This document shows, in pieces, positions 1,781 through 47,195 of a stretch of 64,000 nt of DNA (the first letter of the stretch is position 1; each line of letters opens with the position of its first letter). Origin of the DNA: a bacterium (GTDB lineage: Bacteria > Bacteroidota > Rhodothermia > Balneolales > M1805). The position numbers were made by a program, and so were the translations under genes. Below the pieces are notes generated by a model, which did not search any database, was not told the origin of the DNA, and saw only the letters and a program-made list of their open reading frames with translations. The stretch spans positions 27,919 through 91,918 of the forward strand of contig SBGQ01000174.1 of assembly GCA_006226965.1 (NCBI GenBank), written 5' to 3'.

Positions 1781-1987
1781 TTATTTCTTTTTTGATCGTA
1801 GTTTTCGAAGTGCATATGCTGCTCCACCGGCAGCAATAATGCCAAGTCCGCCATCGATTGGCGCCTGAGACGGCGCTTGTGGCATTCCCGGTGGTTGAGC
1901 ATATCCGGATTGTATAGAAATAACAATCAGTAAAAGCAGTATTGAAAATAAAAGACGTAACAATTTTGTTAATGCTGAATATTTCAT
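1781..1987 (-). CDS. 68-aa mini-protein: signal peptide, short Pro-rich linker, P-I-D-G-G motif, one hydrophobic helix and a basic tail (C-terminal sorting-signal-like)
   Basis: MKYSALTKLLRLLFSILLLLIVISIQSGYA|QPPGMPQAPSQAPIDGGLGIIAAGGAAYALRKLRSKKK. The start codon lies 3 nt after the stop of the 1608-aa gene. A paralog with an identical core lies at 11821-11991. Confidence 0.6.
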   Translation of the reverse strand: MKYSALTKLLRLLFSILLLLIVISIQSGYAQPPGMPQAPSQAPIDGGLGIIAAGGAAYALRKLRSKKK

Positions 1988-1990: not shown

Positions 1991-4900
1991 TTATTTAATT
2001 AGAGTCATTTTCATTGATTTATACATTCTTCCGTCTACACTCAAGGTGTAAAAATAAATTCCACTCGCTAAAGCTTCTGCATTGAAACTCTGTGCAAATT
2101 CACCGGCTTTAAATAGCCCTGAAATGGGCTCCGATACGAGTCTTCCAAGTACATCATAGACTTTAATTGACACCATTCCTGCGTTTGCCAAACTAAACTT
2201 AATCGTTGTTGTCGGGTTAAACGGATTCGGAAAATTTTGATATAAAGCCATTTGATATGATTTTTCCTGAGATTCATTGGATGTGGCTACCCCTGAAATA
2301 TCCAATCTAAATCTGTTTGATGTGTGTTGTTGCATGTGCACAGACGGCGCTTTCGTTGCATCAACACTAGTTTTTTGTGCGTTTTTCTCTAAGTCAAATG
2401 TATATGGTGTTGATAAGTCCGTTTCAGTTTGGGTAAGAATATCAACCAATTTTACATTCCATTCACTTGGAAACATAGTTTTGTCTAATGAAATTGTATG
2501 TCTTCCGCTTTCTGAACTGTTTACTTCAACAGGCAAACTAAAGTTGGCCACAGTTGTCGGTAAGTAGTTTATATCCATTACGTTTCCATCTTCTGAAACT
2601 GTACCAATTTGTACATATTTACTTGAAATCGGCGCTAATTTTAAAGCATCTTTTTTGTCTTTGTTAAATTCACCGTCTTCAGCAAATTGAATCCACGAAG
2701 TGTTTTTTAAGCCAGAATTATGAGTTATCTCTAGCTTAATCGCTGATATTTTCTTCGCCACTTCTTTTCCGAGAAAGGCATTCCCATCGTAATTTCGCGC
2801 AGATTGATAAATGGTTAGCGAAGGTGAATCATATTCGGTTTGTACAAAAAATCCATTTAAAGGCCCGATTAGTCCATTCGTCAACGAACCGACTGAACCA
2901 TTCCATGATTTCCATTCCGAATCGCTATTGTCCCATACATAGATGGATGAACTCAAATTACCTGGCGATAAACTATTCCAATCCAGATTAGCAATAAACG
3001 GATTTCCCAATAGAGTTAATCCGCCGACATTCTGATTTAGAAGGCTATCCACTTGTACATCGTTATATGAATCTTCAAAACCAGTAAAACTTATTTCTTT
3101 AGGAAATCCGGTATCTCCTTCTACTCCGGGACCATTATCATCACTAAACACATAAACCAGAACGCCTTTACCTCTTCGCAGGGTATCACTTAAGGAAGTG
3201 ATACTGTTCCAATTACTTAAAGAATCGTGATCAGTTGTGTTGTCCCATGTGTACACGTTAGAACTTCCGTGTGAAACAGAAGCGCCATCAAAACCTTGTG
3301 TCCAAATATCGGATAAAAGTGCTGAATACGGTTTTGAACCAACAGGCAATGATAATAATCGCCAGCCTTCTGTCCCGCTAAGCGTCAATGTTGCTTGTGG
3401 GTCTTGCAGATATAATTGGAAGTTATCATAACGTGCATACACGATGTCCATAACTCCGTCATTATTAAAATCTGCACTTTTATATAAGTAATAGCTGTTT
3501 TCAGGATCTAAAACAGCATAATCCGCAAAATTTCCACTTCCATTGTTAAGACGCACTTCAATCTCATCACCTTCACTAACCAAGATGTCTAAATCTCCGT
3601 CCGAATCCGCATCAATAAGATTTAAAATCTCGCCATATTTGTCGGCTTCATAACTATAAGGACTAGTAAACTCGCCATTTTCGTAAATAAAAATATAGAA
3701 ATCGTAATCATAGGTTGAGACTACCATATCCTTATCGCCATCGCCATCCAAATCTCCAAATTCAATTCTATTTGAGGAGTCAATCATAAATAGTGTTTGT
3801 GCATCTCCTAAGTAGGTATCACCAACATTTTCAATCCAATATATTTTTGGATCATCAGAGCCTTCGCTTACAACCAGATCTAATAATCCATCGTTATTCA
3901 TATCCATTAATTGAAAGCCTAAATAATCCTCTTCTGAATAATCTGTCGAAAAGGTTCCCGTAGTTACAAATTCTTGACCGCTATGATTTTTGAACACTTC
4001 GATTTCATAGTCTTCATAAATAACCAAGTCTATAAATCCATCATTATCTAAATCTCCAGCTCGCATTATTAATGCATCGTTAGATACGGAGTAGTTTTCA
4101 GAGGTTGTGAACGTACCGTTTCCATTATTTCTAAAAATGACTAACGCATTATAACCGGATGTAGCAATATCTATATCGCCGTCATTATCAAAATCTGCGG
4201 CTACAATTCCTAACACATAATTAGAGATATCGTACTCAACAGGAGTGGCAAAAGTACTATCCTGATTATTGATATAGATGTAGGTTTTCATGTTGGAACG
4301 GGATAAAATCACATCTGTGTAACCGTCACCATTTAAATCTGCCACCTCCATTGCCGTCGGATTTCCTGAATAACTATCCGTAAAGTAATCAGAAAAACTA
4401 CCTGCCCCAGGATTTGTAGCAATAGTGAATGTATAGGACTGAGAATTTTCAAAACTGTTATTTTCACCAAGAATATCTTTACTTAAACTAACCGTAACCG
4501 TTTCGCCTTCTTTGAAATCTGTTGTTGGGTCAAATATCAATTTGGCATTGCCATTGGCGTAGGAAATACTTCCGGCATGATTACCGCTTAAACTTCCATA
4601 TACTAAAAAGGTTGAATCGTTAGTAATGGTTGCTGTATCCAATGCATCACTAAACGTAATCTCAATATTTGTTGATTTTGAAACATTTAGACTGTTTTTT
4701 GCCGGACTAACTTGGGTTACATAGGTTGTTAACTCAATTTCTATGGATGATGTAGGTGCATCGGTTAGTAAATATTTTTCTACTCCTGATTCCCCGTTAA
4801 ACGAATACACCGCTATATAATACGTTTCGCCCGGCTCCAGATTTGTAATTCTCATTTCTGTTGATTGACCATTACTTATCACAAAATTACCGAAACCCAA

Positions 4901-6817
4901 TTCATCACCTGAACCAAAGTTCAATGAAGCATCATACGTAACTCCGTCTACCGGACTGGCATCAACAGCACTTCCCTGCTTCATAACAACCAAATTATTT
5001 ATTCCATTTCCGGCTGTAAAGGATAAATCAGCTGATGTAACTCCGTTGTTTTCTAAAGCCAGACTCGAAACTTGTACCGTTGGTGTAGATAGCGGTAAAT
5101 CAAGATTGTATTTATCTGATAAATAAGTTGCTACTTCTAGCCGTTCTTCTACACTAAGTTTTTTGTTGTAAATGATAATCTCAGCAATACGTCCACCCAT
5201 ATATGCGTAGGAATATTGACTATCTGTACCGATATAAATGGTATCGTCATCACCATTTTGAAAATCGAAACTATCATTTGAACCGTATAATTTTCCATTA
5301 ACTCTTATTTCACCGAGTGAACTCGTTCCACTTGCATTAACTACGTGAAAATTATTATCAAAAAATTCTGATGCCACACCTGCGCTTACCGATGCATTAC
5401 TGTTACCCCAAAATGCAATGCCATTTTCATACTCAAGTAATTGAATAAATGGAGCGGTTTGCCCGTAATTATTACCAATTATTGGAACATAATTGGCTTG
5501 ATTGGCTTGCACTACAATAAACATATCGTAGTCGGAATTTTGAATACCTAAGTCTCCCGATGTTGGCAATTCCATAAATTGAGTTGATCCATTGAATTGA
5601 ACTGCTCGAAGACTGTTTATTGCATTTTCAGTAACCGTTGGTTGAATACTATTATTAGATTGTTCGGCATTGTTTCCTTTTCCGGTGAGGTCGTGCCATA
5701 CAGAAATTGGGTCATCACTATCATAGGTATCCAAGGTTAAATCTGCGGCATACCACAATTTTAGACTGTCTTTTGTAAATGTTGTATTACCAACCCAAAT
5801 TGCCTGCATTTCTGAATAAACAGTCCCGTTTACATAGTTTGCGGCTAAGCTAGCATAATAAACGGTGTTTGAATCTAATTCTGTAACCTCAAATTGGATT
5901 GCATCATTCGAAATACCAGTTCCACCATTTATTACACTCGTTGTTGTAGATAAAGAATTAGGATTAGTGCCATATACTAATTGATAACTCGTGGTTGATG
6001 AAGTTTCAACAGTGGTACTAAACGTAAAGGATGTTGTTGAAGTATTGCTTAATTCTACATTTGTAAAGACAGGTTCTTGATTAATTCCGTATTTATTTTC
6101 TAAGTAATCTTCAACTGAATTTCTGTCTGTTTCACTTAATTCTGCACTATAAATAATTACTTCTGCTATATCGCCGCTAAATGGCAAGGTTAAATTTGAA
6201 CGAATTCCTAAATAAAGTGTCCCGGCATCATCTGTCTGTACATTCAATGCGCTTACTGTTGAATCAGCTCCATTCACTTGAACAATTCCATTCGAAGCCG
6301 TAGCTCGCATATTGAATATATAAGGCGCCGCATTTGAATAATCGCCAATAGAACCTTCATCAATATAGATTGATGCTTTGGGTATAAAACGAACTCCGGC
6401 GGAACCGTTCAAATGAACTTCATATCGTTCTATTGAACCACCTAATAAAAATATTGTGCTTGTTGTAACACTACTCGTTTTTGCAACAATGAATATTTCG
6501 TAATCATTGCTTTGAATAGCGAGCGTACCGGCTGATGGAAGAGTTAAATAATCATTAACTCCGTCAAAACGAATAACCGGATATCCGTTTATAACATCAT
6601 TTACGATAGTCGGTTTATTGGTTTCCGAAACTTGTGTTACCGAGTTTAGATTACCGGACTGATCTGCCCATGCACTAACATATCCGCCCGATGAGGTAAC
6701 TCCGGCATTAGCTTTAATATGTAATTCTAAATTCGTTGTTGGTATTTGTGCATGTAATAAAGTTGCCGAACTGAACACCAGCACAAATGTGAGTAGTTGA
6801 ATAGATAATCGTTTCAT
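1991..6817 (-). CDS. Giant secreted T9SS cargo protein (1608 aa): 2 LamG-like jelly-roll domains, FN3/Ig-like domains, FG-GAP/VCBS repeat block, conserved C-terminal module, T9SS C-terminal sorting domain
   Basis: Signal peptide (LLHA|Q). LamG-type signature DIAEVIIYSAELSETDRNSVEDYLENKYGI occurs twice. There are 7 or more D-x-N/D-x-D-G repeats (DLNGDGYTDV, DFDNDGDIDI, DLDNDGFIDL, DMNNDGLLDL, DLDGDGDKDM, DADSDGDLDI, DFNNDGVMDI) at about nt 3430-4400. The C-terminus NFPNPFNPTTTIKFSL...GIYFYTLSV...MTLIK is typical of T9SS type A CTDs. Confidence 0.85.
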   Translation of the reverse strand: MKRLSIQLLTFVLVFSSATLLHAQIPTTNLELHIKANAGVTSSGGYVSAWADQSGNLNSVTQVSETNKPTIVNDVINGYPVIRFDGVNDYLTLPSAGTLAIQSNDYEIFIVAKTSSVTTSTIFLLGGSIERYEVHLNGSAGVRFIPKASIYIDEGSIGDYSNAAPYIFNMRATASNGIVQVNGADSTVSALNVQTDDAGTLYLGIRSNLTLPFSGDIAEVIIYSAELSETDRNSVEDYLENKYGINQEPVFTNVELSNTSTTSFTFSTTVETSSTTSYQLVYGTNPNSLSTTTSVINGGTGISNDAIQFEVTELDSNTVYYASLAANYVNGTVYSEMQAIWVGNTTFTKDSLKLWYAADLTLDTYDSDDPISVWHDLTGKGNNAEQSNNSIQPTVTENAINSLRAVQFNGSTQFMELPTSGDLGIQNSDYDMFIVVQANQANYVPIIGNNYGQTAPFIQLLEYENGIAFWGNSNASVSAGVASEFFDNNFHVVNASGTSSLGEIRVNGKLYGSNDSFDFQNGDDDTIYIGTDSQYSYAYMGGRIAEIIIYNKKLSVEERLEVATYLSDKYNLDLPLSTPTVQVSSLALENNGVTSADLSFTAGNGINNLVVMKQGSAVDASPVDGVTYDASLNFGSGDELGFGNFVISNGQSTEMRITNLEPGETYYIAVYSFNGESGVEKYLLTDAPTSSIEIELTTYVTQVSPAKNSLNVSKSTNIEITFSDALDTATITNDSTFLVYGSLSGNHAGSISYANGNAKLIFDPTTDFKEGETVTVSLSKDILGENNSFENSQSYTFTIATNPGAGSFSDYFTDSYSGNPTAMEVADLNGDGYTDVILSRSNMKTYIYINNQDSTFATPVEYDISNYVLGIVAADFDNDGDIDIATSGYNALVIFRNNGNGTFTTSENYSVSNDALIMRAGDLDNDGFIDLVIYEDYEIEVFKNHSGQEFVTTGTFSTDYSEEDYLGFQLMDMNNDGLLDLVVSEGSDDPKIYWIENVGDTYLGDAQTLFMIDSSNRIEFGDLDGDGDKDMVVSTYDYDFYIFIYENGEFTSPYSYEADKYGEILNLIDADSDGDLDILVSEGDEIEVRLNNGSGNFADYAVLDPENSYYLYKSADFNNDGVMDIVYARYDNFQLYLQDPQATLTLSGTEGWRLLSLPVGSKPYSALLSDIWTQGFDGASVSHGSSNVYTWDNTTDHDSLSNWNSITSLSDTLRRGKGVLVYVFSDDNGPGVEGDTGFPKEISFTGFEDSYNDVQVDSLLNQNVGGLTLLGNPFIANLDWNSLSPGNLSSSIYVWDNSDSEWKSWNGSVGSLTNGLIGPLNGFFVQTEYDSPSLTIYQSARNYDGNAFLGKEVAKKISAIKLEITHNSGLKNTSWIQFAEDGEFNKDKKDALKLAPISSKYVQIGTVSEDGNVMDINYLPTTVANFSLPVEVNSSESGRHTISLDKTMFPSEWNVKLVDILTQTETDLSTPYTFDLEKNAQKTSVDATKAPSVHMQQHTSNRFRLDISGVATSNESQEKSYQMALYQNFPNPFNPTTTIKFSLANAGMVSIKVYDVLGRLVSEPISGLFKAGEFAQSFNAEALASGIYFYTLSVDGRMYKSMKMTLIK

Positions 6818-6872: not shown

Positions 6873-6909
6873 GCAAACGTGTCAATTATCTGCGCATTTG
6901 TGTCAAAAA
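6873..6909 (-). promoter_or_regulatory. Conserved upstream motif of the giant genes, copy 1. Transcription sense: TTTTGACACAAATGCGCAGATAATTGACACGTTTGC
   Basis: Near-identical to 21841-21876 (2 mismatches in 36) and related to 11595-11629. It contains the direct repeat TTGACAC-N14-TTGACAC. It lies exactly 61 nt upstream of the ATG, as does the 21841 copy. Confidence 0.4.
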
Positions 6910-6950
6910 GGTGCACAATTAGCCAATAAGCCGATTTTATGCACCTTTTT
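6905..6950 (-). terminator. Possible intrinsic terminator after the 1523-aa gene
   Basis: AAAAAGGTGCA ... TGCACCTTTTT forms an 11-bp stem followed by a T-run on the minus strand. The loop is large (24 nt), so confidence is moderate. Confidence 0.4.
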
Positions 6951-6957
6951 GTTTCGC

Positions 6958-9900
6958 TTATTTAATCAACATTAATTTTTTTGTAACCACACCTTGTTTA
7001 CTGCTCAGTCTATAAAAGTACAAGCCTGATGCCAGATTTGATGCATTAAACTGTACTTGATGATATCCCGCATTTCGCATTCCGTTTACTAAGGTCTGCA
7101 CTAAACGACCTGTTACATCATAAATCTCTAGACTTACCTGATCTGCTTTCGGCAAAGAAAATTTTATGGTAGTACTTGGATTAAACGGGTTCGGATAGTT
7201 TTGAGCGAGTTCAAATTGTGCGGGAATCTGCGATTCGATGCTTGTGACTTCGCCACGTTTTATGCTTAACACGAAACGGTTTTCCATGGCTGTTTGACCC
7301 GTGATTTCAGGCTGTTTGCTCACATCAATGGCTTGCTTTTTGGAAACCGTGTTCGAAACAAAGCTGAGTTTGCCTTCACGGTTGATGAATGCTCCCGATT
7401 GTGTGTCGTGGAGTTCTACTTTCCAGTCTTGGGGCAAGTTTACATTCGAGATTGCCATTTCGTGTGTTCCCGAATACGTGCTGTTCACAAAAACCGGAAT
7501 TTCCACTTCGTTAAACTCTATCGGTAACTGATTGCTATCCAGTAATTTTCCGTCAGCGTCTTGGGTTGAGATTTGCACATAATCCCATGACAAAGGAACG
7601 AGTTTTAAAGCGTCGAGTGCGTCTTTTCCTTCGAGTCCATGTTCAGAGAATTCAACCCAGGCTTTGTTCGATTTACCTGATTCGGTATTAATCTGCAATT
7701 CAACCAAAAATTGATTTTTTGCCACTTCTTTGCCCAGAAATACCGAATTACCTTCCACTTTTGCTGATAATGGTACACTTAGTTCAGGAGAAGCATCCAT
7801 AGTTTCTACAAAAAAGCCATTGAACGGACCAATGAGCCCATTGGTGAGTCCGCCTGTGCTTCCATTCCAGGTTTTCCATTCGGATGCTGAATTATCCCAC
7901 ACATACACCGAGCCGGATAAATTGGGTTTACTCATCAAATCCCAATCGATGTTGGTGGAAAACGGATTTCCAACTAAGCTCCAGCCATTTGTATTTGGAT
8001 TGATGAAAGAATTCATATTCACATCTGCGCTTGGACTAAATCCATCGGCTCGTAGTGTTTTGGGGAATCCGGCATCGGTGGCATTGTCCGGTCCATCATC
8101 ATCGCTGTAGATGTAGGCTAAAATGCCTTGACCCGGAGTAAAGGTGCTGGCTGCATTGGTAAGCGGTGTCCACTGTGTAGAATCGCGGTTTCCGGAATTG
8201 ATCGGCCAGGTATAGACATTCGCTGCGCCTTGTTCGAACGCCGCGCCCGTAAAGCCTTGTGTCCACAGACCACGGAAAAACGAAGCGTACGAAGAATCGG
8301 CAACTGGCGAAGAAAGCAAGCGCCAGCCTTCGGTTCCTGTAAGACTCGCCGACTCGTTTTTGTAGTTCTGAATGGCATATTTCTCGAATAAATGTGTTTC
8401 TACTTGGTTTCGTTCTGCTGCGCTGAGTACCTTGTTGTAGATAATCACCTCTGCAATGTCTCCATAAAAGGTGAACGAATTATCAGCTCTCACACCCAAG
8501 TAAAGATGACCGGCCAAACTACTTCGGGCGCTTCCTGCGTGAGTGGTTTGCGTACGATTTACACTCATTACCCCTTCTGTATCCGACGCCCGCATATTAA
8601 ACACATGCGGCTTGGTATCGGTATAGTTTCCGGCAGTTCCCACATCCACATATTTTCCCGCATTGGGGATAAACCGCGCTCCAGCGGCTCCATTTAGATG
8701 CAACTCATATTGTTCCAGAGATTCGCTTCCAACCAGAAAATTAACAAAACTCGAATGGCTCACTCCCGATTGGGCAACTAGAAACAATTCGTAATCGGAA
8801 TTTTGAATTCCTAAATCCGCTGCGGTGGGAAGCGTTACATACGTGTCGGTTCCATTAAAACGCAATGCCGGCAAATGGTTGATGGCGCTATCCAACACAA
8901 CTGCTCGTCGCGCCAAATTATCCTGAAAAGCATTCTGATTGGCATCTGCCAAATTGCTCCATGTATTCACCGAATCGTTGGAAGTGATAAACCCAAGCCG
9001 TCCTGCATCCAGATGCAGTTTTAAATTTCCGGTGGGAATCGGACTTGGGAGTGTGGTAAAATTAGCGATTCGTGTAAATAACGGTTGATCTAGATAATCT
9101 GTAGAAAGAGACCCATCATTTAAGAAACCATTTCCAAAGGCTCCATAAGCTTTTGTTCCTTCTAAGACCCAGCCAAAACTTTGAACTGATCCATCCCCCA
9201 TTAATGCCAATCCATGATAAAGTTGTGCAGTAAAATCAATTACTTTTTTACCATCCAAATCGGAGCTTATCACCTGATAAGGAACCGTTCGATCTAGTAC
9301 TGGGCTTGTATTAAATCCCGCATATCTCACGGTTCCCCAGCTGAATAGTCTTCCGGATTCTGTACGTAACATTGAACTTTTAAATCCGGCTGAAATACTG
9401 AACACCCTTTCCCCATTGAGCATGGTATCAATAATTGCTGTGGGCGTTTTTACAATGGTTGAATTTTTATACCCGAGTCCCAATGCGCCATCAGAATTTT
9501 CACCCATAGCAAGTACTTGGTAATCTTCATTCAAAAACAGGAAGTGCGGAGAAATTACTGCACCTCCTCGATCTAAATATCCAATTGAGGCATCCAGAAT
9601 TTTCTTACCACCTACATTGATATGAGAAGCTAAAGTAGGCACATTCAAATCATTGGAGTTTCCAAAACCCATGTAATCATTGTTACCCTCTCCCCACATA
9701 TACACTGTTCCATCTGAAGCAATAGCAATACTCTGAAGTTGCCCTGCTACTACTTTCACAATGGATTTACCGGATAGATTCGCGGTTACCGGAGTAGGTA
9801 CAAACCGGTTTTGAAAATCTCCAACTCCCAATTGGCCACTTTCGTTATTTCCCATGGCAAAAACAGTTCCATCGTCTGCCAATAAGAGGGTATGACTATT

Positions 9901-11529
9901 ACTTTTATTTTCTACTTCTTGGTTAATAATACCATGAACTGAAACATCAACAATACGTTTTCCTGTCAGATTTGGATGTGTAATTAATGTAGGGATATAC
10001 ACATCAACACTATCCCCTAAACCCAGATTTCCGGAATTGCCCCTACCAAAACTAAATACTTTCCCTTCATCAGTGAGTAAATAGGTGTTGCTTCCACCGG
10101 CTTTAACATCCACGATCCGATGGCCCTCCAAATTACTATGCTCAAGTTTGGTCGGAACTGCTTTAATGGAATTAATATCCAGCAAAAAAAGGGGGAAACC
10201 GATTTGGTCAGAAGGAAAAAGTACATTAAAAGATTTTTCTATGTTCAGCAGAAAAACCTGACCATTTGTGCTTAGCAATAAGGCGATATTGCCATTTACC
10301 TCCATTCTGCTAATGGTTTCACCTTGCAAAAATGCCGTATTTATGGGTAGTGGTCGGGATAAAATGCCTGAATACCCCGTTCCTGCACCTATTCCTGAAC
10401 CATATAGAGTACCATCACTGGCGCGAAATAAAGAGAATTTTTCGCCAACTTTTGCTTCCACAATAGGTTTATTATCAAAATATGCGGCAGGGATTTTTGT
10501 CCAGGCTGTATCGGTATTTACAAAATCACCTTTACCTAAAACTCCGTTAGTAGCTTCCCCGACCACATATACAGAACCATCGGTTGTGGTAACTATGGTG
10601 CCTACAATGTTTGATAGACTTATCGTTGAAACACTGCTAATGGCTTTCCCTTCCAGGCTTGAATGGGTTACCGGTGCCGGAAACAGCAGGTCTGAACTCA
10701 AGGTACCCATGCCTAAACTTTCTCGAAAATTGCCAACCGAAAACAAGGTACCATCGGTAGTTAGGATTCTATGTACCCCCTGTGCGAGTGCCATATCTTT
10801 AATGGTTTTACCTGCAAAATATGACATAGGCATAGCCACAGGAATGGTTTGTGAAATAGTACTACCAATCCCAATCTGTCCGTTTGAATTTTCCCCAAAG
10901 GCGTACAAGGTATTGGCATCGGTGAGCAACAGCCTTGCATTGTCACTTCTGCCCATTTTTACCACTTTTTCCCCGTTCAGATTCGTAAGATTTAACGGGG
11001 TTATATGCGTCACTGTGCTTACTGATAGACTGGTACCTAGATATGCGTTGTTATTTTTTCCGGCCCCAAAAACGGTCCCGTTATCAGAGAGAAAGAAGGA
11101 AAAATCATCCCCTGCCAAAACCTGAATAATGTTGGCGGTATCTAACGCCGCATCGTTAAGTTGAAACAGTTCATCGAAATATTCACCTGTATAATTGATA
11201 CCGAATGGATTCTCGCTACCTCTTCCCGTTCCATATACGGCCCCATCGCTGGTTAGAAACAAAATGTGTGTGCTGGATATTGAGAAATCAACTACCGTTT
11301 TGCCAATTAACAGCGGATGGTTTATCGGACAGGCAAGATCCAAACGTTTATCGCCACCGTGACCAATCTCACCGTACAATCCAGCCCCAAAAGTATAGAC
11401 ATCATTATTTTCGTCGAGCACAACGCTATGGTAGGCGCCAACGGCAATTTTGGCTTTGTTGGTTTGCCCCAAGGCGGTTTGGAAGAGAAAAAGAACAAAC
11501 AAACAAATGTTAGTTACAATTCGAATCAT
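6958..11529 (-). CDS. Giant secreted T9SS cargo protein (1523 aa): N-terminal RCC1-like beta-propeller repeats, LamG-like domain, conserved C-terminal module, T9SS CTD
   Basis: Signal peptide (TALG|Q). Many RCC1-type motifs are present (GAGLYGEIGHGG, GENSNGQIGIGS, GRGNSGNLGLGD, GNNESGQLGVGD, GENSDGALGLG). LamG signature YGDIAEVIIYNKVLSAAERNQVETHLFEKYAI. The C-terminus is NYPNPFNPSTTIKFSL...GLYFYRLSS...LMLIK. Confidence 0.85.
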   Translation of the reverse strand: MIRIVTNICLFVLFLFQTALGQTNKAKIAVGAYHSVVLDENNDVYTFGAGLYGEIGHGGDKRLDLACPINHPLLIGKTVVDFSISSTHILFLTSDGAVYGTGRGSENPFGINYTGEYFDELFQLNDAALDTANIIQVLAGDDFSFFLSDNGTVFGAGKNNNAYLGTSLSVSTVTHITPLNLTNLNGEKVVKMGRSDNARLLLTDANTLYAFGENSNGQIGIGSTISQTIPVAMPMSYFAGKTIKDMALAQGVHRILTTDGTLFSVGNFRESLGMGTLSSDLLFPAPVTHSSLEGKAISSVSTISLSNIVGTIVTTTDGSVYVVGEATNGVLGKGDFVNTDTAWTKIPAAYFDNKPIVEAKVGEKFSLFRASDGTLYGSGIGAGTGYSGILSRPLPINTAFLQGETISRMEVNGNIALLLSTNGQVFLLNIEKSFNVLFPSDQIGFPLFLLDINSIKAVPTKLEHSNLEGHRIVDVKAGGSNTYLLTDEGKVFSFGRGNSGNLGLGDSVDVYIPTLITHPNLTGKRIVDVSVHGIINQEVENKSNSHTLLLADDGTVFAMGNNESGQLGVGDFQNRFVPTPVTANLSGKSIVKVVAGQLQSIAIASDGTVYMWGEGNNDYMGFGNSNDLNVPTLASHINVGGKKILDASIGYLDRGGAVISPHFLFLNEDYQVLAMGENSDGALGLGYKNSTIVKTPTAIIDTMLNGERVFSISAGFKSSMLRTESGRLFSWGTVRYAGFNTSPVLDRTVPYQVISSDLDGKKVIDFTAQLYHGLALMGDGSVQSFGWVLEGTKAYGAFGNGFLNDGSLSTDYLDQPLFTRIANFTTLPSPIPTGNLKLHLDAGRLGFITSNDSVNTWSNLADANQNAFQDNLARRAVVLDSAINHLPALRFNGTDTYVTLPTAADLGIQNSDYELFLVAQSGVSHSSFVNFLVGSESLEQYELHLNGAAGARFIPNAGKYVDVGTAGNYTDTKPHVFNMRASDTEGVMSVNRTQTTHAGSARSSLAGHLYLGVRADNSFTFYGDIAEVIIYNKVLSAAERNQVETHLFEKYAIQNYKNESASLTGTEGWRLLSSPVADSSYASFFRGLWTQGFTGAAFEQGAANVYTWPINSGNRDSTQWTPLTNAASTFTPGQGILAYIYSDDDGPDNATDAGFPKTLRADGFSPSADVNMNSFINPNTNGWSLVGNPFSTNIDWDLMSKPNLSGSVYVWDNSASEWKTWNGSTGGLTNGLIGPFNGFFVETMDASPELSVPLSAKVEGNSVFLGKEVAKNQFLVELQINTESGKSNKAWVEFSEHGLEGKDALDALKLVPLSWDYVQISTQDADGKLLDSNQLPIEFNEVEIPVFVNSTYSGTHEMAISNVNLPQDWKVELHDTQSGAFINREGKLSFVSNTVSKKQAIDVSKQPEITGQTAMENRFVLSIKRGEVTSIESQIPAQFELAQNYPNPFNPSTTIKFSLPKADQVSLEIYDVTGRLVQTLVNGMRNAGYHQVQFNASNLASGLYFYRLSSKQGVVTKKLMLIK

Positions 11530-11820: not shown

Positions 11821-11991
11821 TTACTTTTTCGATTTTAGCTTTTTGAGCGCATAACCTGCGCCGGCGATTGAAAGCACAGCGATTCCGCCATCTATAGGCG
11901 CCTGAGACGGTGCTTGTGGCATTCCCGGTGGTTGTGCGAATAGAATTTTGGGGGATACAAGTAGAAATATGGTGAGTAAAAAGGTTTTCAT
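11821..11991 (-). CDS. 56-aa mini-protein, paralog of 1781-1987 (signal peptide + QPPGMPQAPSQAPIDGG + TM helix + basic tail). Absent from the ORF track because it is under 60 aa
   Basis: My own translation gives MKTFLLTIFLLVSPKILFA|QPPGMPQAPSQAPIDGGIAVLSIAGAGYALKKLKSKK*. The 18-aa core is identical to the 68-aa ORF and about 45 nt are nearly identical at DNA level. It lies 95 nt downstream of the 3232-aa gene on the same strand. Confidence 0.6.
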   Translation of the reverse strand: MKTFLLTIFLLVSPKILFAQPPGMPQAPSQAPIDGGIAVLSIAGAGYALKKLKSKK

Positions 11992-12086
11992 AGAATTCGG
12001 TGGTTTAAGTTTCGTGTGATTGTTGTGCTCGTTTGATAATTGGTTCGGGATCGGTTATGCCTATTGCTTAAACCCAACACCTTTTT

Positions 12087-15000
12087 CTACTTTATCAGCA
12101 TCAACTTTTTTGTAACCACACCTTGTTTACTGCTCAGTCGGTAAAAATACAATCCCGAAGCTAATCCCGATGCATTGAACTGTACCTGATGATACCCCGC
12201 ATTTCGCATTCCGTTCACTAAGGTCTGCACTAAACGACCCGTTACATCATAAATCTCTAGACTTACCTGATCTGCTTTCGGCAAAGAAAATTTTATGGTA
12301 GTACTTGGATTAAACGGGTTCGGATAGTTTTGTGAAAGTCCAAACTCTGTGGGAATTTCATTTTCAATCGAGGAAACCAGATTATTTTTGATTCTCAATA
12401 TAAAACGTGATTCAGATGTGCTTTGACTTTGAATTTCCGGCTTATTAGAGTTTTCTGATTGAGATTTCTTAACTGAAACTGCGTAATCAAATGTAATCAC
12501 ATCATCCATTGCATACTCCACACCTGATTGTGTATCAAACCAACGAATAGTCCAATGCTCCGGAACAGAAGGCGCTTGCAATGATAATTGATGTGTTCCA
12601 TTGAATGTACTGTTTACATGAACAGGAATATCCAATTGGCTGAATTCCAATGGCAGTGTATTGATATCCAATAACTTACCATTTTCCAACTGTGTAGAAA
12701 CCTGAACATATTCAGATGTTAGCGGAACAAGTTTAATTGCATCAAAACGGTCTTTATTTAACAAACCTTCATTTGAAAATTCTATCCAGCTTTCATTTTC
12801 TAAACCTTGGTTGTTTTTTACTTGCAATGAAAGGGCAACGATTTCTTTCGTATTTGATTCGTTCTGAGAACTTGTGTTTGCTTTCCCTAAGAAAATAGCA
12901 TCGCTTGTTACTTTAGCCGTTTCCGATATGCTTAGTGTTGGCGAACTTGCCGAGGTTTCAACAAAAAAACCATTAAAAGAACCAATAATACCATCGCTAA
13001 GCGTACCGACAGAACCATTCCATGTTTTCCATGTTGATGCGCTGTTATCCCATACATAAACGGCTTCTGTTACATTCGTTTTGTTCACTAAATCCCAATC
13101 AATATTGGTATTAAACGGATTTCCAAGAAGAGTCCAACCGCCTGCATTCGGATTTAATAAGGAATTCAGATTTACATCTCCATAAGGTGTAAACCCGTCT
13201 ATTTGAAGTGTTTTGGGGAAACCCGCATCGCCTTCTACTTCCGAACCATTATCATCGCTAAACACATAAACCAAGGCTCCGCTTCCACGCTGGAAACTTG
13301 ACGCTGCGTTTGATAAAGGTACCCAGTTTGTAGAATCTCGATCGCTACCGTTAATTGGCCATGTGTACACATTTGAAAAACCATTCGGTACCGTTGCGCC
13401 TGTAAAACCTTGTGTCCAAATGCCATCGAAGAACGATGCGTAAGTCGAATCTACAACGGGTGTTGATACCAATCTCCAGCCTTCTGTTCCTGTAAAGGTG
13501 AGTTCATTGGAAATGGTTTGATTCATAGGAATTGTTGAATTTTTCCAATTGGAACCGGAATCATAATTGAAGTTTGACATCGACGCCGACAAATCATTTT
13601 GATTTTCTGATGTAAGCGTCCCGCCGCCTTCATTAAACTGGAAGTATGCGACTAAATCAGGATAATAATCATCGCTTAAGCTACTGTTTTTATTGTCTGA
13701 TATTTCTTGTTGTGTTCTCGCAGAATTCCAAATTCTGAACTCATCAATTTCACCTGCAAAATGTAAGTTTTGAGATACTTGTCTACGACCAATATTCACA
13801 GGATTATTTGTTACCATAATGGCTTGAGCTAAAGAGCCGGAAGTGGCTCCCGTAGCATCAACTCCGTTAATGTAGATTTTCCCTAAGGATTGAGAGGGGT
13901 CATAAACCGCAGCAAAATGAGTCCATTCTCCGGGCGTAAATGCTTCTGCAGGAGTATCTATATACACGCCGTATCTTGGAATAAAACGAATCCCGTTCGA
14001 GCCCATTCCGAGATGAACTTCCCATTCTTCACTCCCTCTTGATACAACAAACTCAACTGCACTTCCGCTATGACTCCATTTAAACCAAAACTCCATAGTA
14101 AGCTTGTTTATAGTAAAAGCAGAGTTATATGGAATTGAGAGAAAATCATTTGTTCCGTCGAATAGAATTGAGCTACCTGCAAAATCATCGAATCCAACCG
14201 TAAAATCACGCGCAATCATAAACTGACCAAATTGTGAGAGGGTATCAAATGTAACTGTATTTGATGTGGTAGAATTTGCAGAAGAACGTATTTCCTGCCA
14301 GTTACCAACCGACCCAAAATCTCTACGATATAATGTGAATTGAGTCGGATGTACCTCGCCGAATTTCATTAAAGATTCAGGAACTGTAAATGTTAATGAC
14401 GCTTTGTACGCACCTGCATTTCCGGCTTCATATACAACCCAATATTGATTATTCAAATTAATTGTATTCCCGGATGGAATCAGATTGGGTTCTACAGTAA
14501 ACCGTTTTGTTAATACAGAAACCGTGTTATCAAAATCTTCTGTTATTGTGATGTTTAAGTCGGACGCGTTTAAACTGCCTGATGTTAAATCGGTAAAAGC
14601 TGCGTAATCACCCTGTCCGAATGGAATAGCAGAGTCTCGCCATCCGTTTGTGCCATTAAACTCCATATTTTCTAAAACAGCATTCGTCCCTGAAATCGGA
14701 TCTACAGTAGTAGTTCCACTGCCTTCATTGAATTGTAAGTTCACCAATAAGTTTTCAAAACCTGAACTTATGTTCGTAAACATACCGCTTCGAATTTCTT
14801 CTACTGTTCTGATGTCATTCCAAAAACGAAATTCATCTATTTGACCCTCAAAACATAGAGCGTAACTTTTTCTGGCGCCTAATAACAAATCTAAACCTGT
14901 ATTTCTTAGTGCCGTTGTAAGCGGATTGCTTCCATTATTTGTAAGAGCTACTTCATTTCCGTTTATTACCATTCTTGCAAACGATTCATCAGGATTGTAA

Positions 15001-18000
15001 GAAACGGCGATATGGTTCCATTTTCCGAATTCAAATACATTTGCCGGCGAATCCAAATACACACCGACTGTTGGTATAAAACGAATAGATTTGTTTGAAT
15101 TAATAAGGTGAATTTCCAACTCCTCGCCGTCCATAGCGGTTAGAAACGGCACATCTGTTACTCCGGCTGTCGGGTTAAACCATAGTTCTAAGGTAAACTT
15201 ATCAACTATAAATTCCGGATTATGAGCTATTCGGACACCTTCGTCAGCGCCTCCAATAGCTATTGCTGATGATGCCGAATTAGTAGGAACTGATGTTAAC
15301 GTTTTTGTTGAAAATGTGAGTGGAGTAGTGGTTAAATAATCTTTCTCATAAACACCATTATACTCAAAAACGGCAATATTATATGTTGTTCCCGGTGTCA
15401 AGCCTGTTAAATAAATCGTAGAGTCTGAAACTACGGGAATAGCATAATTTCCTGTTCCTAATTGTTCCCCGCTGCCGAATACACTATTGGGTGAATAGAT
15501 ATTTCCATCAACCGGAACTGCATCCACAGCAGTAGTAGCTTTTGCAAGTACAAATCTTTTACTACCATTTCCTTTGTGAACGCTAAATCCTAGTGAATTT
15601 GTTGTTTTTGATATTACTTGCGGCGATGAAGCTTGAATAGTTGGTTCAGAAACATTGACTAAGTCTATTGCATATTTTCCAGAGAGATAGGCATTTATCG
15701 TGTTTCTTGTCGATATATCAAGAGCTTTATTGTAAACGATTACTTCAGCAATATCTCCATCATAGTAGAATGAACCTCCGGTTCGAGTTCCTAAAATAGG
15801 ATCACTCACATTTGCTGATCGTGTACTACTATTTAGCAAGCCTACCAATTCGTTATTAACCCGAATACTTCCTAATGCATCAGTTGATTGCACATTGATA
15901 ATCCTTGCCGTTCCATCTGTGTATTGGGTACTGCTGCCTGCATCAACATATTTGTCTCCAGTTGAAATAAACCGAACTCCGGAAGACCCGTTTAGTTGGA
16001 TTTCCTTGTGTCCTACTCCTGCGCTCCATACAAATTGAATGGCATCTGATGCAGATTTTAATACGATAAACAGTTCATAATCTGAATCTGTAATTCCGAG
16101 ATTTTCGGGATTTAAGGAAGCCAAATACTGATTAATTCCATTAAAACGTATCACCGGCTGGGAATTTATACCCTCTTGAACGACTACCGGTTGATTTGGA
16201 ATTCCTGTTTGTACAAAATCATTTTCAATAGAAGTTCCGTCTAACCAAGCTGCTACTGAACTTCCTGTACTTATTGTTAGGCCACGCCCGGCAGATAACC
16301 ACAACTTCAAACTATCTGAAGGGACAGATTCATCGTGCATAATGCGTCGTAAGTCTGAGGTATAAACCCCTTGAGCAAAAGAAACTTCAATTTTGTAAAA
16401 CAGAAAGTTTGTCAAATCAACTGAGTTTATCGTTTCATTAACTGTAATCTGAGCGATGCTTCCATCGAAGTTTTGCGATGAAGTTACTGATGAAAGATTA
16501 GAAGCATTTGCACCGTAAATCACACGATACGTGCCGCTCAGACCAAAACTTTCAAACTGCGCATGTAAGTCGAAAGAAGTCTCTGAAATATTACTTTCAT
16601 CCGATACGGTTATTAAAGATGATGCGATGTCTGAATAATCGTAGAAATCGGCCTCATTGGACGCAACGTTCGCATTAGCAGCTGTTCCAAACGTGTTATT
16701 AGATAAAATAACAACACCGTTTGCGTTAAAAATTGCACCTCCATAACTCTTCCCATTGTTTATTTCTGTATTCTGGCCACCAATACCGCCAATTGCAGTA
16801 TTTCGATTAAATACTGAGTTTTGAATAAATACTTGGCCTGAACGATTGAATACGGCTCCACCCATTCCGGCACCACCACCACCATAATTTGTTGAACCGG
16901 AATAAGTTGCACTTCCACCGCCAAACGCACTTACTCCCGGTGTTCGTTCTAACCAAATTCCATTTGGTTCCGCCGCCGCGCCGCCGCCGCCGCCAAATCC
17001 ACCGTTTCCACCATTAATAGGATCACTTTGTTGAGTTACAACTGCTCCGGAACCGCCACCAGCTGCAAACCCCCCATGTCCCCCATTTGGCCTTCCCGAA
17101 TTACCTCCGGCACCAACACCACCACTTTCTCCTAATTCCACTCCAGGATTTCCACCCAAATACCCGGAGTATCCTCCGTTACTGTTTAGAGCATCAGAAG
17201 CAAAACCACCGCCTTGACCAGAACCTCCACCAGCTGAATAGGATGCGCCTCCTTGTACCGTATTGTCTTCAAATAACATATTGTTAAGCGTCACATTTCC
17301 ATCATTTACAAAAATGGCCGCACCCATTCCGGCGCCCCCTCCACCTATGGAGTATGCATTTCCGCCTTTTCCATATCCATTAGTGACTGCCAAACCCTGC
17401 ATTGTTACTGTCGGAGCTGCAGGAATTTCAGGAGTAAAAGGAGTAAGCCCAGAGCCAATGAAAAACGGACGATATAAATTATTTCCACTTATAGTTAGAG
17501 AACCAGACCCCGGACCATTTATTTGCATATCATAATTGATAGCAGGTAAATCAGATGTGAGAGTAATTGTGCCACTAATTTTAGACATATCAACCACAGT
17601 AGTAGCTTCCGGTGCAGCTGTGTTGATGGTGTTCAACACATAACGAAGACTCCCGTATTGTCCCGAACCTACATTATCATCTAAGGTATTTGTTACAAAG
17701 TAATAGGGTAAAGTAACTGCATATTTTGCCGCCAAATAATGCTCAACATGAGCTAGTTCTAATTCTGTTAATTCAGCATTATAAATTAAGACTTCTGCAA
17801 TATCGCCATCAAAATAATACGTACCATCTCTACGAGCTCCCAAAATTAGATTCCCGGATGCATTTACCAAGGCATTTGAATTACCCGTAACACTGTTCCC
17901 GTCAATTCGCAACCCACCCGAACTTGAAGTCGCTTTTGCATTAATGATATGGAACTCACCGTCTGTGGAGTTTATCGGATTATCTATGTAATAACCTGAT

Positions 18001-21000
18001 TTGGGTATAAAACGTGTTCCAACTTCGCTTCCAGGACGAGTATGTATTTCGTAATTCGGAACTGGACCTCCCATTAAAAAACCAATCGAAGCAGACGAGG
18101 TTTTGGCAACAATGAATACTTCATAGTTATTGTTAATCAAACCTAAAGAATCAGTTAAAGGCAATTCCAAAAAGTCTGAAGAACCATCGAATCGAAGTAC
18201 AGATACGCCCGAATCTGTAACTCTTGTTGGACTATCAGCGACATTGATTTGATACGCTTTTGTTGCTTTACCAGATTGGTTCGACCAATTGCTAACCGCC
18301 TCACCTGAACTTGCAGTATAAGTTGCCTGATCTCCCGAAGCCCAAAATTTTAGTGACGGAAGACTGATGTGTTCCCGATAGGTAAATGTCACTATTTCAG
18401 ATTCGGTACTTCCGCCAACGTTTTCAGCAACAACTTTATAATAATATGTCGTATTTGCTGATATTCCTGAAAGTGCTATTTGAACGCTTTGTTCGGACGA
18501 TTGACTCCCAACTGCTTGTGCTGATGTACTCATGTTCAAATTATCATACGATGTTCCAAATACAACCTGTGCCGTTGTAGCGTAGCTATTTGGATTCACA
18601 AAAGCTATTACACTTGGCGTTGATGTATGGGTATTTTCAACCGAATACAAGGAAACGGCAGGTGGAATTACACTAGTCGTAGACTGGTTGGTTGATGCGG
18701 TTGAAGAAGTTCCATAAATCGGCAATCCTTCCATGAGATCGTATTCATATACATCGATAGTATATTCTGAACTAGCTGCTAGTCCGGTTAAGCTAACAGA
18801 CGTTCCAGTACCCTTTCCCACAACATAATTGCCGTTTCCAATATGTGATCCACTTCCAAAATTTGGATTGGCAGAATACGAAACACCTTCAGTAGGAGCT
18901 GTTTTTTGTGAACTACTAAGTCTGGCAACGATTAATCGTTCAGTCCCATTTCCTGCATCCATTGAAACCGAAAAACCGGTTGGTTGAATAGATGTGAAGG
19001 CGAGATTGGACGCTTCAATCGAAGGAATTGAGGGATTATATACAGAAACAGCATATCGGGTTGACAAGTATTGGGAAATTTCCATCCGTTGTTCCGCTGA
19101 TAGCGTAGATGCAAAAATCATTATCTCTGCAATTTGACCAATAAAATCTCTGGAACTATAGTGATTAATGCTTCCAAAGTATATTTCTGTACTAACTAGG
19201 GTTCCAGTATTCGCGTTTACTGCATAATCCCCATTATCAACCCGAATTGTTTTCGATGTTGAATTCCCTTTAAAGTGCATCACATGAGGATTCCCATCTG
19301 TGAATGCGTTTAGACTACCCGTATTCGCTCTATCATAATAACTTCCGGCTGACAATCCCGCTCCAACATTTGTACCTATTTCCAGTAAACTGTTGGTTGA
19401 TGTTGAAAGCAGATATTGTTGATTTGTATTGGTCGTTTTAAAAACGATAAAAATCTCTATATCCGTATTGATAACACCTAAGTCCGATGCACTTATTCTT
19501 AAATCGTTTGAGCCCGTAAATTCGAGTGCTGTTTTACCATTAACTGAAAGTGTTCGTGCTGGTGCTCCACTACCTAATTTTAGATCATGCACGTTACCAG
19601 ACATGTCTTTAAGAAAATTATTATTTGCTCCACCAAGTATATAATCCCCATAATCTGCTCGCCACCACGCTTTCATATCTGTGGTACTCATAGGAATAAA
19701 CATAAACACTTCGGACTCTACTGATCCTCGTAAGTTGGTGACTCTAACCTTTCCGTAATAAGTCTGACCTAATGTCAATCCTGTAACAGTAAGGGTATCA
19801 TTAAGATCTACTGCTCCGCTACCAACGGAATGACCGGCGGCTGTAGACCCAAAGGTGATATTATCGGTACCATATATAAAGTCTGCCGTAGTTTCCCATC
19901 CATTGGGATTCACGGCATAAACAAATGATCGCGTTGTTGCGGTTCCATCACCGTGCTCAACAGCCGATAAGGTTGGAAATGGGACAAGCGTTGTACTCTG
20001 CGAACCTACTGCCGGGCTTGTAGTTTTAAAACAAATTGTCCCGTTGTATTCATTGAATTCATACACCGCTACAAAGTAAGTAGTAGAATTTGATAAACCG
20101 GTAAGCGTAAACGAATTTCCATTGCCTTTATAGGCTACATAATTACCGCTTCCTAAATCTTGTCCGCTTCCAAAGCTCGAATTAGCAGAATAGTTTTGTC
20201 CATCGCCAGGAATTGCACTTACTGCTTGACCTTCTCTTACTATTACCAGACGATTTTGCCCATTTCCGGCAGTAAATGAAACAGTCATTTGATCTAATCC
20301 AACAGAAGAAAACTGCACGGCACTTGCAGAAGATGAGGGATATGTAATTCCTGAATTTACCGGAGGATTTACAACTTGATATTTTGGAACACCATTATAC
20401 ACTTCATATTCGTAAGCGGCTAAGTGATAAACGGAACTTGCTGCAAGCCCGTTTAGGCTAAAACTGCTTCCGTCTGATCCGGCATAAATCACATAATTTC
20501 CACTTCCAATTTCAGAGCCAGCTCCGAACGTTGCGTTTCCCGTGTACGAAACTCCATTTGATGGTGCTTGATTTACAGCACTTCCTGCGCGAGCTACAAC
20601 CAAACGATAGGTACCGTTTCCGGCAGAAACACCGCCTGTAAAAGCATTATCGGTTCTACTTATAATGCTTAATGAGCTAGCCTGAGTTAAATCTACTGTT
20701 GTTTGATTTCCTGAAACTGCACTTCCATATTGTGGAACGCCACCCACTAAATAGTATTCATAAACAGCAAAATGATAACTTGAATTAAACTCTAGTCCGC
20801 TTAATGCTGTTGATGTTCCATCTGTTCCGGCGTAAATAACGAAATTTCCATCACCTAAATTCGAACCGGCACCGAAAATTCCGCTTCCGGTGTAAGCAAC
20901 TCCATTAGTCGGCGCAACAGTAACAGATCCACCTTTACGCGCAACTACAACGCGATGTGTACCCGAACCTTTTGTTAAATTCACATTCATCGAACTCTTG

Positions 21001-39508: not shown

Positions 39509-39617
39509 ATCCTTTTTTTAAAAAATCATTCTTCACGTAATCTATTGACTATCAATCAATTATATAAAGAGCACCTTGCTCGTAGCGTAATTCTATAATT
39601 TTTTTTTGATTAAAAAC

Positions 39618-39645
39618 TAAAGTCGGCTATTTGGCTACACGATAA
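39618..39645 (+). promoter_or_regulatory. Candidate sigma28 (FliA) promoter of flagellin gene 1
   Basis: TAAA-N16-CACGATAA compared with the consensus TAAA-N15-GCCGATAA. It ends 44 nt upstream of the ATG. Confidence 0.45.
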
Positions 39646-39688
39646 GAAGCTCAGTAACAAAATAAACCGCAACTTAAGCTTCAACATT

Positions 39689-40534: not shown

Positions 40535-40613
40535 TCGCCGGCCGATCCGTTAAAAAAATTGTTTCTGTTAGATTTAAATCGTTCTTTGAAATATTGATTT
40601 TACGTGTGGTCGA

Positions 40614-40641
40614 TTTAAGCAATTTCTTTTTTGTTCGATAA
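40614..40641 (+). promoter_or_regulatory. Candidate sigma28 promoter of flagellin gene 2
   Basis: TTAA-N15-TTCGATAA (-35-like at 40615-40618, -10-like at 40634-40641). This is weaker than the copy-1 promoter. Confidence 0.35.
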
Positions 40642-40673
40642 TGTTAGATGCCTCAAGGAAGAGGCATCTAACA
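40642..40673 (+). promoter_or_regulatory. 5' leader hairpin presenting AAGGAA in its loop; candidate CsrA binding site 1 of flagellin 2
   Basis: Perfect 13-bp inverted repeat TGTTAGATGCCTC-AAGGAA-GAGGCATCTAACA. A second GGA lies in the SD AAGGAG at 40688-40693. Confidence 0.5.
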
Positions 40674-40698
40674 GAAAACAATTAAAGAAGGAGCTATT

Positions 40699-41544: not shown

Positions 41545-41555
41545 CAAATACAAAG

Positions 41556-47192: not shown

Positions 47193-47195
47193 ACC

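Follow-up and report, generated by a model that had tools for sequence, protein, structure and literature searches.

Haft's definition of a tripartite C-terminal sorting signal combines a signature motif with a membrane helix and a basic cluster, in proteins that also have an N-terminal signal peptide (bioRxiv 10.1101/2023.06.07.544157). Papers on exosortases present both the cleavage of such signals and the conjugation as proposals and do not identify the compound that is conjugated. In two other systems, GlyGly-CTERM/rhombosortase operating with the type II secretion system and MYXO-CTERM/myxosortase, a tripartite signal processed in the inner membrane is coupled to a separate outer-membrane secretion step and to surface retention. 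Among type IX secretion system (T9SS) cargo proteins, those with type-A C-terminal domains (CTDs) use the general PorV shuttle. For type-B cargos, a cognate PorP/SprF shuttle gene is located directly downstream of the cargo gene (PMC12618676). Here we analyze a 64,000-nt stretch of DNA (hereafter, the window) from a Balneolales bacterium (contig SBGQ01000174.1 of assembly GCA_006226965.1, positions 27,919 to 91,918 of the forward strand) and a 56-amino-acid (aa) open reading frame (ORF) in it, termed W56, which is a genuine gene of the PID-CTERM family (NF046080, PF28310) and forms a conserved two-gene cassette with the T9SS type-A cargo gene upstream of it. W56 in itself is no discovery, since it belongs to a curated family in which it is nothing unusual; the added value is in the genomic context, where thousands of bare sorting signals, none of which was found in the literature, are wired gene by gene to a subclass of T9SS giants in at least two phyla, and where in one of these phyla (Marinimicrobia) an exosortase gene resides within the same operon, pointing to a link between two bacterial protein-sorting systems.

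The W56 mini-gene (11821..11991, minus strand) is an ATG-started ORF with the translation MKTFLLTIFLLVSPKILFAQPPGMPQAPSQAPIDGGIAVLSIAGAGYALKKLKSKK, and the ORF listing gives exactly the protein that the first-pass annotation had read by hand from the gap between two giant genes (this gap is 557 nt long, one less than had been claimed). Its signal peptide (M1-A19, 11991-11935) is followed by a Pro-rich stub (Q20-A31, 11934-11899), the PIDGG motif (11898-11884), a Gly/Ala-rich membrane helix (I37-L49, 11883-11845), a Lys-rich tail (K50-K56, 11844-11824) and the stop codon (11823-11821), all on the minus strand. The C-terminus reads PIDGG-IAVLSIAGAGYAL-KKLKSKK-stop, i.e., a P-I-D signature, a hydrophobic segment and a basic cluster, and the protein scores 29.3 bits against the NCBIfam model of the PID-CTERM protein-sorting domain (NF046080, curated cutoff 26). 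A paralogous mini-gene of 68 aa, W68, is present where it had been reported (1781..1987, minus strand, PIDGG at 1861-1847, from the ORF listing); it is in frame with the gene of a 1608-aa T9SS protein, 3 nt past whose stop codon it starts, ends with PIDGG-LGIIAAGGAAYAL-RKLRSKKK-stop and scores 34.0 bits. Since both scores are above the curated cutoff, W56 and W68 are new members of a known, unpublished family rather than an unknown gene, and they share with it the same P-I-D-G-G, Gly/Ala-rich helix and C-terminal K-K-L-R/K cluster, with nothing to distinguish them from other members. The description of W56 as unannotated is accurate for the ORF track used earlier, which had a length cutoff, but not for the public protein collection, which already holds both proteins with a precomputed PF28310 (PID_CTERM) assignment, as it does for all close relatives, several of which (from Gracilimonas and Balneola) carry NCBI PID-CTERM names. 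No papers mentioning PID-CTERM were found in the literature searched. A family profile run against the six-frame translation of the window detected only W56 (81 bits) and W68 (85 bits), the next match being at 5 bits, and thus no further mini-gene copies in the window.

An extended family analysis gave a consensus of MKT, ~20 hydrophobic residues, A↓Q (the arrow marks the signal-peptide cut), P(P)GLPxxPxQAPIDGG, LGLLAAAGGAYAL, KKLR and, often, an acidic tail. When 5.8 billion proteins were searched through a word index, 3475 matched, the best 120 of which are all 59-92 aa long; an exhaustive search of 1.84 billion cluster representatives returned 1739 matches (E <= 1e-3), the best 150 of which are 40-180 aa long. 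As these strong hits are all small, have the same Pro-rich stub and contain no other domain, they constitute a mini-protein family and not a tag on diverse proteins; thus, while the PID-CTERM name implies a tag carried by other proteins, the family consists almost wholly of 40-180-aa proteins that lack a cargo domain. A lone 737-aa match is spurious, as it hits a repeated QPGLPSCPSQ motif. Some variation in architecture is observed: roughly 15 among the best 150 representatives are longer (129-154 aa), and those that were read (P0154, P0164, P0168 and Balneola loci) belong to a zinc-ribbon-like sub-family, with an N-terminal CxxC...(~29 aa)...CQxC preceding the first hydrophobic segment. Zinc-ribbon-like members also occur among the loci collected below (L031, 5755-6177; L036, 5767-6192; L044; L052; L066; L068), and judging from their sequences a cytoplasmic part is implied, possibly in a two-helix hairpin topology. 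In GC-rich relatives, 50-100 disordered residues separate the signal peptide from the conserved PGLPxxPxQ[AV]P[IV]DGG. Neither the zinc-ribbon extension nor the long GC-rich relatives matched a Pfam family.

The selection acting on these genes was assessed in a set of 65 loci obtained by a pattern scan with one genome per species (some genomes contribute several loci, Gracilimonas tropica five), all but two of which are from Balneolales or from metagenome-assembled genomes (MAGs) labelled Bacteroidota. At each of the 65 loci the mini-ORF is intact, with its own start codon and a hydrophobic N-terminus/signal peptide. Across 62 distinct homologous genes, third codon positions are near-saturated (~1.9 bits) and positions 1 and 2 are fixed at P-I-D-G-G, G44, Y47-A48 and K51, a pattern which demonstrates selection on the protein and not on a DNA or RNA element. 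Mean synonymous and non-synonymous differences per site (pS and pN) for these genes are 0.78 and 0.18, respectively (pN/pS 0.23), with ratios of 0 in PIDGG, 0.35 in the Pro-rich stub and 0.24 in the helix and tail. The claim of a real, selected coding sequence made in the first-pass annotation is thereby upheld, and the case that it had named as its possible refutation, frames broken in relatives or an element conserved irrespective of frame, is excluded by the codon-position pattern and by the lack of any broken frame in the 65 loci. Its other proposal, that the Pro-rich core is the functionally constrained part, is largely right and yet incomplete, because residues of the membrane helix and the tail are conserved too: invariant or nearly so across the family are A19, Q20, P22, P25, P28, Q30, A31, P32, I33, D34, G35 and G36 in the N-terminal and core part, and L40, A41-A43, G44, G45, Y47, A48, K50, K51 and L52 in the helix and tail.

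The core shared by W56 and W68, from which these claims had started, is confirmed. An 18-aa core (AQPPGMPQAPSQAPIDGG) is the same in both proteins, with 4 of 54 nt differing, all at synonymous third positions; the quoted plus-strand string of ~39 nt is present with a single C/T difference; and to either side of the core, signal peptides and membrane segments have diverged at the majority of positions while retaining their hydrophobicity, the N-terminal hydrophobic segments having no sequence relation and the C-terminal hydrophobic segment plus tail showing ~12.5 non-synonymous and ~11.5 synonymous differences over 19 codons. The residues responsible for the core identity (G-M-P-Q-A, S) fall at positions that are variable across the family, and synonymous differences per site between the two genes are ~0.2 in the Pro-rich part vs. 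0.70 in the helix. The simplest explanation of this excess identity would be a short gene-conversion tract, which is favoured because conversion is seen elsewhere in the cluster (two CTDs 90% identical). It could alternatively be argued that the ORFs are accidental and the shared 45-54 nt are a conserved DNA or RNA element (a regulatory site, a repeat or a small RNA), with the low synonymous divergence of the window-pair core (4 differences in 18 codons) in its favour; but the same codons have saturated third and fixed first and second positions in the 62 homologues, the frame, start codon and signal peptide are retained at every locus, homologous proteins number in thousands, and the local identity is better explained by conversion, which together leave this alternative with practically no probability. 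The two CTDs in question are those of the 3232-aa (12088-12356) and 1523-aa (6959-7227) giant genes on the minus strand, which are 90% nt-identical over 270 nt; this identity, probably due to gene conversion within the cluster, stops exactly at the stop codons, and the remainder of the two proteins is far more diverged.

On the minus strand of the window, the giant genes and mini-genes stand in the order: hybrid regulator, 3232-aa gene, W56, 1523-aa gene, hairpin, 1608-aa gene, W68, TetR regulator and short-chain dehydrogenase. The upstream partner of W56 is a 3232-aa protein (12087..21785, minus strand; by Pfam, four Laminin_G_3 domains, fn3-like domains and Por_Secre_tail), and that of W68 is a 1608-aa protein (1991..6817, minus strand; Laminin_G_3, Big_5, seven FG-GAP repeats, a module at 2246-3382 and a CTD); between the two pairs is a 1523-aa T9SS type-A cargo gene (6958..11529, minus strand; RCC1 repeats, Laminin_G_3, a module at 7210-8343 and a CTD) that is not accompanied by a mini-gene. 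The cluster begins with a hybrid two-component regulator (21934..25836, minus strand) with Reg_prop/Y_Y_Y, HisKA, HATPase_c, receiver and AraC HTH domains. All three giants of the window are adhesin-like (Laminin_G_3, FG-GAP, RCC1, fn3) and match PF18962 at 40-50 bits. The upstream partners combine a C-terminal Por_Secre_tail/TIGR04183 domain with an N-terminal signal peptide, as expected of T9SS type-A cargos, and the type-A assignment of the cargo CTD is supported by 57.6 bits with TIGR04183 (cutoff 23) vs. 13.3 bits with the type-B model TIGR04131 (cutoff 35).

Directly before the CTD, the three giants have in common a region of ~380 aa (2246-3382, 7210-8343 and 12339-13496, minus strand; ~386 aa in the 3232-aa cargo, as delimited by an alignment of the three window copies), which also occurs in Marinimicrobia T9SS proteins. 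This pre-CTD module has no Pfam or NCBIfam family. Its predicted structure is confident and all-beta (pLDDT 82, pTM 0.84), and a comparison of the fold with the PDB yielded nothing significant (best E 0.014, TM <= 0.16), with PDB sequence matches confined to the CTD. The module looks like an undescribed domain family.

Nearly all cargos that are paired with mini-genes carry this module. At 54 of the 65 loci, the mini-gene is preceded on its own strand, at a distance of 8-487 nt, by the end of a large ORF with a T9SS CTD, and eight extra cargo-mini pairs, some in tandem arrays, were found in locus flanks. Of 76 CTD-bearing ORFs in these loci, a mini-gene comes next after 59 of the 63 that have the module vs. 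3 of the 13 that do not (Fisher p = 2.5e-7). The bias persists among ORFs that were not the reason for fetching a locus (7/11 with the module vs. 1/11 without it, p = 0.024), and when adjacency on either side is counted for these, the figures are 11/11 vs. 1/11; the four module-bearing exceptions adjoin a mini-gene on their upstream side. Linkage to this type-A subclass looks obligatory. The only recurrent neighbours in the 65 loci are T9SS cargo genes (56 loci) and hybrid two-component regulators (within 6 kb at 18 loci), the latter being present also at the G. tropica locus L001. Read-through of the stop codon, fusing cargo and mini-protein, was considered for W68, which is in frame with its cargo, and dropped because a separate signal peptide of the MKT type is encoded by each mini-gene and the spacers vary from 8 to 487 nt.

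Co-transcription with the giant gene, which had been proposed for W56, is consistent with these data at the level of sequence: as claimed, 95 nt separate W56 from the stop of the 3232-aa gene, terminator prediction found nothing in this spacer (11992..12086, minus strand; no terminator-like structure, folding vs. shuffled sequence not significant, z = +0.89), and the gene order is kept in 54 of the 65 loci. The sole clear terminator-like structure in the giant-gene cluster is a hairpin at 6904..6951 on the minus strand (dG -23.6 kcal/mol, z = -6.2, with an A-tract/U-tract), which lies directly 3' of the 1523-aa gene and separates it from the 1608-aa/W68 unit.

A second phylum displays the same pairing with a further component. 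In Marinimicrobia, and in one unassigned contig, a gene of 56-58 aa begins 10-14 nt after the stop of a module-bearing cargo gene, and its product has a signal peptide, A↓Q, ..FPSxPxQAPIGG, a Gly/Ala helix and KKLK, matching the full-length Balneolales profile with 41-69 bits (E 3e-14 to 9e-6 for a library size of 1.84 billion). At one such locus (L075, 4997-6154), the mini-gene is overlapped by a gene for a 187-aa exosortase/archaeosortase-family protein (TIGR04178, 62 bits, cutoff 23), after which comes a conserved gene whose product, a membrane protein of 171 aa, belongs to no known family. A metagenome scan with this enzyme recovered 30 loci (L076-L105) at 75-99% identity; wherever sufficient upstream sequence was available (26 loci), a T9SS CTD motif is located upstream, and in all but one of these (25/26) the mini-gene is directly upstream of the exosortase gene, overlapping it by 22-43 nt. 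In several MAGs the enzyme and the mini-protein have successive accession numbers at NCBI. The resulting operon order in Marinimicrobia is T9SS type-A cargo, 58-aa QAPIGG mini-protein, 187-aa exosortase-family protein and 171-aa membrane protein. An enzyme gene beside its target gene is the type of evidence that Haft accepts for dedicated sorting systems (bioRxiv 10.1101/2023.06.07.544157), and this arrangement, present in 25 of the 26 Marinimicrobia loci, is absent from the window and from the 65 Balneolales loci. Both this operon and the pairing of a PID-CTERM mini-gene with a module-bearing T9SS cargo appear to be undescribed in the literature searched, in which we found nothing relevant on exosortase X/Y and no paper on an exosortase in taxa with names beginning in Balneol.

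Compared with the established systems, the signal is alike in layout and differs in its use. Like PEP-CTERM/exosortase and PGF-CTERM/archaeosortase A substrates, the mini-proteins have a signal peptide, a Pro-containing motif, a short helix, a basic cluster and multiple copies, and their Marinimicrobia homologue shares with those systems the adjacency of the enzyme gene. They differ in that no unrelated cargo proteins carry the tag, the basic cluster is rich in Lys and not in Arg, the genomic linkage is to a T9SS cargo gene instead of an exopolysaccharide locus, and the enzyme gene is non-adjacent in the 65 Balneolales loci. Haft attributes 1-6 (C-terminal position, several copies per genome, at least three invariant motif residues, helix, basic cluster and signal peptide) are all observed, with two copies in the window, at least five in G. 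tropica and P, I, D, G and G invariant in 62 genes. Attributes 7-8, unrelated tagged proteins and untagged homologues, were not seen among the best 120 of 3475 and the best 150 of 1739 hits. A likeness to GlyGly-CTERM is the Gly-Gly pair that opens a Gly/Ala-rich helix, but W56 and W68 gave no match to GlyGly-CTERM and MYXO-CTERM models at E up to 10, and in both of those systems the tag is on the secreted enzyme itself, whereas here it is a separate product encoded beside the secreted protein. The nearest functional analogy for the cargo-mini pair is the pairing of PorP/SprF with type-B cargos, in which a cargo-specific partner is likewise encoded immediately downstream and repeated for several substrates per genome; the cargos here are, however, type-A, and the partner is a signal-peptide/single-helix protein of 56-70 aa in place of an outer-membrane beta-barrel.

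With somewhat better than even confidence, we favour the interpretation that W56 is a cargo-less exosortase-type sorting substrate dedicated to the neighbouring T9SS surface protein, in which we infer the cleavage, the acceptor and the role for the cargo. The Sec signal peptide would be cut after ...LFA, creating a new N-terminal Gln that is probably cyclised to pyroglutamate (pyroGlu) under the Bacteroidetes Q-rule, according to which signal peptidase I exposes a Gln that is then cyclised (PMC5837995, PMC10653852). Signal peptides were assigned by inspection, without a predictor; nearly all family members have MKT and a hydrophobic N-terminus ending in A↓Q, and by analogy a pyroGlu N-terminus of the mature mini-protein is plausible. 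Because all signal peptides inspected in the window end in A↓Q or G↓Q (e.g., ...ATA↓QIPT in the 3232-aa protein), the pyroGlu idea is a reasonable one and the Gln is not special to this family. The mini-protein would then enter the inner membrane beside its cargo, with a 16-residue Pro-rich stub (QPPGMPQAPSQAPIDG) at the periplasmic membrane face, a short Gly/Ala-rich helix and a Lys-rich tail that remains cytoplasmic; having no cargo domain, it would be essentially a bare tripartite sorting signal. The PIDGG motif and the membrane helix may be recognised by an enzyme of the exosortase family whose gene lies elsewhere in the genome (among curated models, exosortase X comes closest), which would cut the mini-protein at the motif and release a Pro-rich peptide of ~14-16 residues. 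Blocked or modified at both ends, this peptide could serve as a dedicated adaptor or anchor for the neighbouring surface protein. Consecutive numbering of the models NF046080 and NF046081 is only a hint that curators pair PID_CTERM with exosortase X.

A number of observations weigh against this interpretation. Exosortase-family genes were detected neither in the window nor in the 65 Balneolales loci; the scan of the window covered all ORFs of at least 150 aa against Pfam and/or NCBIfam, minus two that are likely spurious, being nested antisense in larger genes (10268-11125, plus strand, and 48818-49342, minus strand), and phmmer searches, for which the exosortase of Marinimicrobia and the 171-aa protein encoded next to it served as queries, likewise had no match in the window or the 65 loci. 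The Marinimicrobia enzyme at L075, for which NF046081 (exosortase X) is the best model, scores 148 bits with it, below the cutoff of 170, and the Marinimicrobia mini-proteins reach only ~18 bits with the 25-residue PID_CTERM model (cutoff 26). Unrelated proteins sharing the tag, Haft attribute 7, are missing among the strong hits. One related MAG (L006) retains a W56-like mini-gene as an orphan, with 82% nt identity and without an adjacent cargo gene, between an esterase-like gene and Uma2/TetR/short-chain dehydrogenase genes. Finally, many members have a conserved acidic extension past the basic cluster, which, together with the zinc-ribbon sub-family, suggests that the membrane-embedded protein is itself active and not a discarded remnant.

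These last features lead to a competing explanation, which we consider rather doubtful though deserving of real weight, namely that W56 is an uncleaved small inner-membrane protein, single-pass after removal of the signal peptide (or a two-helix hairpin in the zinc-ribbon forms), acting either as a cargo-specific escort or assembly factor that, for example, docks the last-exported module of the giant protein, or as an MgrB-like regulator of the neighbouring hybrid sensor kinase. Strong conservation of the membrane helix (G44, Y47, A48 and K51 invariant), the acidic cytoplasmic tail of many members and the N-terminal zinc ribbon of a sub-family are in line with a protein that remains intact, as is the absence of a sorting enzyme near the Balneolales mini-genes, while the tight coupling of mini-gene and cargo gene favours assembly in cis. 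On the other hand, the tripartite layout with a conserved Pro-x-(Asp)-Gly-Gly at the membrane face is typical of exosortase-type signals, and the homologous Marinimicrobia mini-gene overlaps an exosortase gene at 25 of 26 loci. The regulatory version draws on the hybrid two-component regulator that adjoins the cluster in the window and is found at 18 of the 65 loci, but at most loci no such regulator is located within 6 kb.

It is also conceivable, but very improbable, that the mini-protein is a covalent acceptor, with the T9SS sortase PorU ligating the CTD-trimmed cargo to the free N-terminal amine of the mini-protein (or of a lipid-linked peptide), which would replace the Ser/Gly-bearing linking sugar of the anionic lipopolysaccharide (A-LPS) used by Porphyromonas. 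The chemistry is appropriate, as the bond that PorU makes is an amide between the C-terminus of a cargo and the free amine of an amino acid (PMC7468200), and both the specific placement of the mini-gene after type-A cargos and the position of the module directly before the CTD cleavage region would fit. The model is nevertheless disfavoured because of the pyroGlu-prone N-terminal Gln and the inner-membrane topology: the invariant Gln is converted to pyroGlu in Q-rule organisms and leaves no free amine (PMC10653852), the positive-inside tail predicts inner-membrane anchoring far from the surface-located PorU, and transport to the outer membrane is without support.

Returning to the favoured sorting-substrate interpretation, an extension of it, unlikely in our estimate, is that lineages without the Porphyromonas A-LPS pathway use the cargo-mini(-exosortase) cassette to anchor T9SS type-A proteins at the surface. 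The exosortase would yield the Pro-rich peptide, probably with a lipid or glycan on its C-terminus, and this peptide would reach the outer membrane and hold the giant adhesin via the ~380-aa module or by direct ligation. If true, such a route would for the first time connect exosortases functionally with type IX secretion, and exosortases would gain a defined substrate with a readable phenotype. More generally, the cassette bears on the function of exosortases and on the surface retention of type-A cargos outside Porphyromonas and Tannerella, and its presence as two genes in cultivable Gracilimonas or Balneola would make both questions accessible to knock-outs and peptide mass spectrometry.

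Several additional observations concern orphan mini-genes and the remainder of the window. The MAG L006 (CAZIQX010000001.1, 1-5007, compared with window positions 27045-9) is without the block from the regulator to W68 (~24 kb of giant genes); it is labelled Chitinophagales, and its content is Balneolales-like. Two other orphan mini-genes, at L030 (987-5318) and L013, have no upstream T9SS gene and share dnaB synteny, and no nearby sorting enzyme was seen at either locus on inspection. The mini-gene of L030, which is from Halalkalibaculum, adjoins genes that on inspection resemble polysaccharide-export and epimerase genes; such surroundings are the classical neighbourhood of exosortase systems. 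In the window, a 285-aa GTG-started ORF (10268-11125, plus strand), antisense within the 1523-aa gene, is most likely a chance ORF. Among sequencing runs, the window sequence was found only in one freshwater-sediment metagenome run, which has no accompanying RNA runs. Beyond the T9SS/regulator cluster, the window contains housekeeping genes and a flagellar/chemotaxis island (34410-44423 and 45756-63590) with three tandem 281-aa flagellins (39689-42450), FliD, FlgK/L/N/I/H/A/G and CheA/W/R/D/X/B/Z. The island is preceded by genes for a 1269-aa FkbM-methyltransferase/glycosyltransferase and for tetratricopeptide repeat (TPR)-glycosyltransferases, which from their sequences look like a flagellin-glycosylation set.

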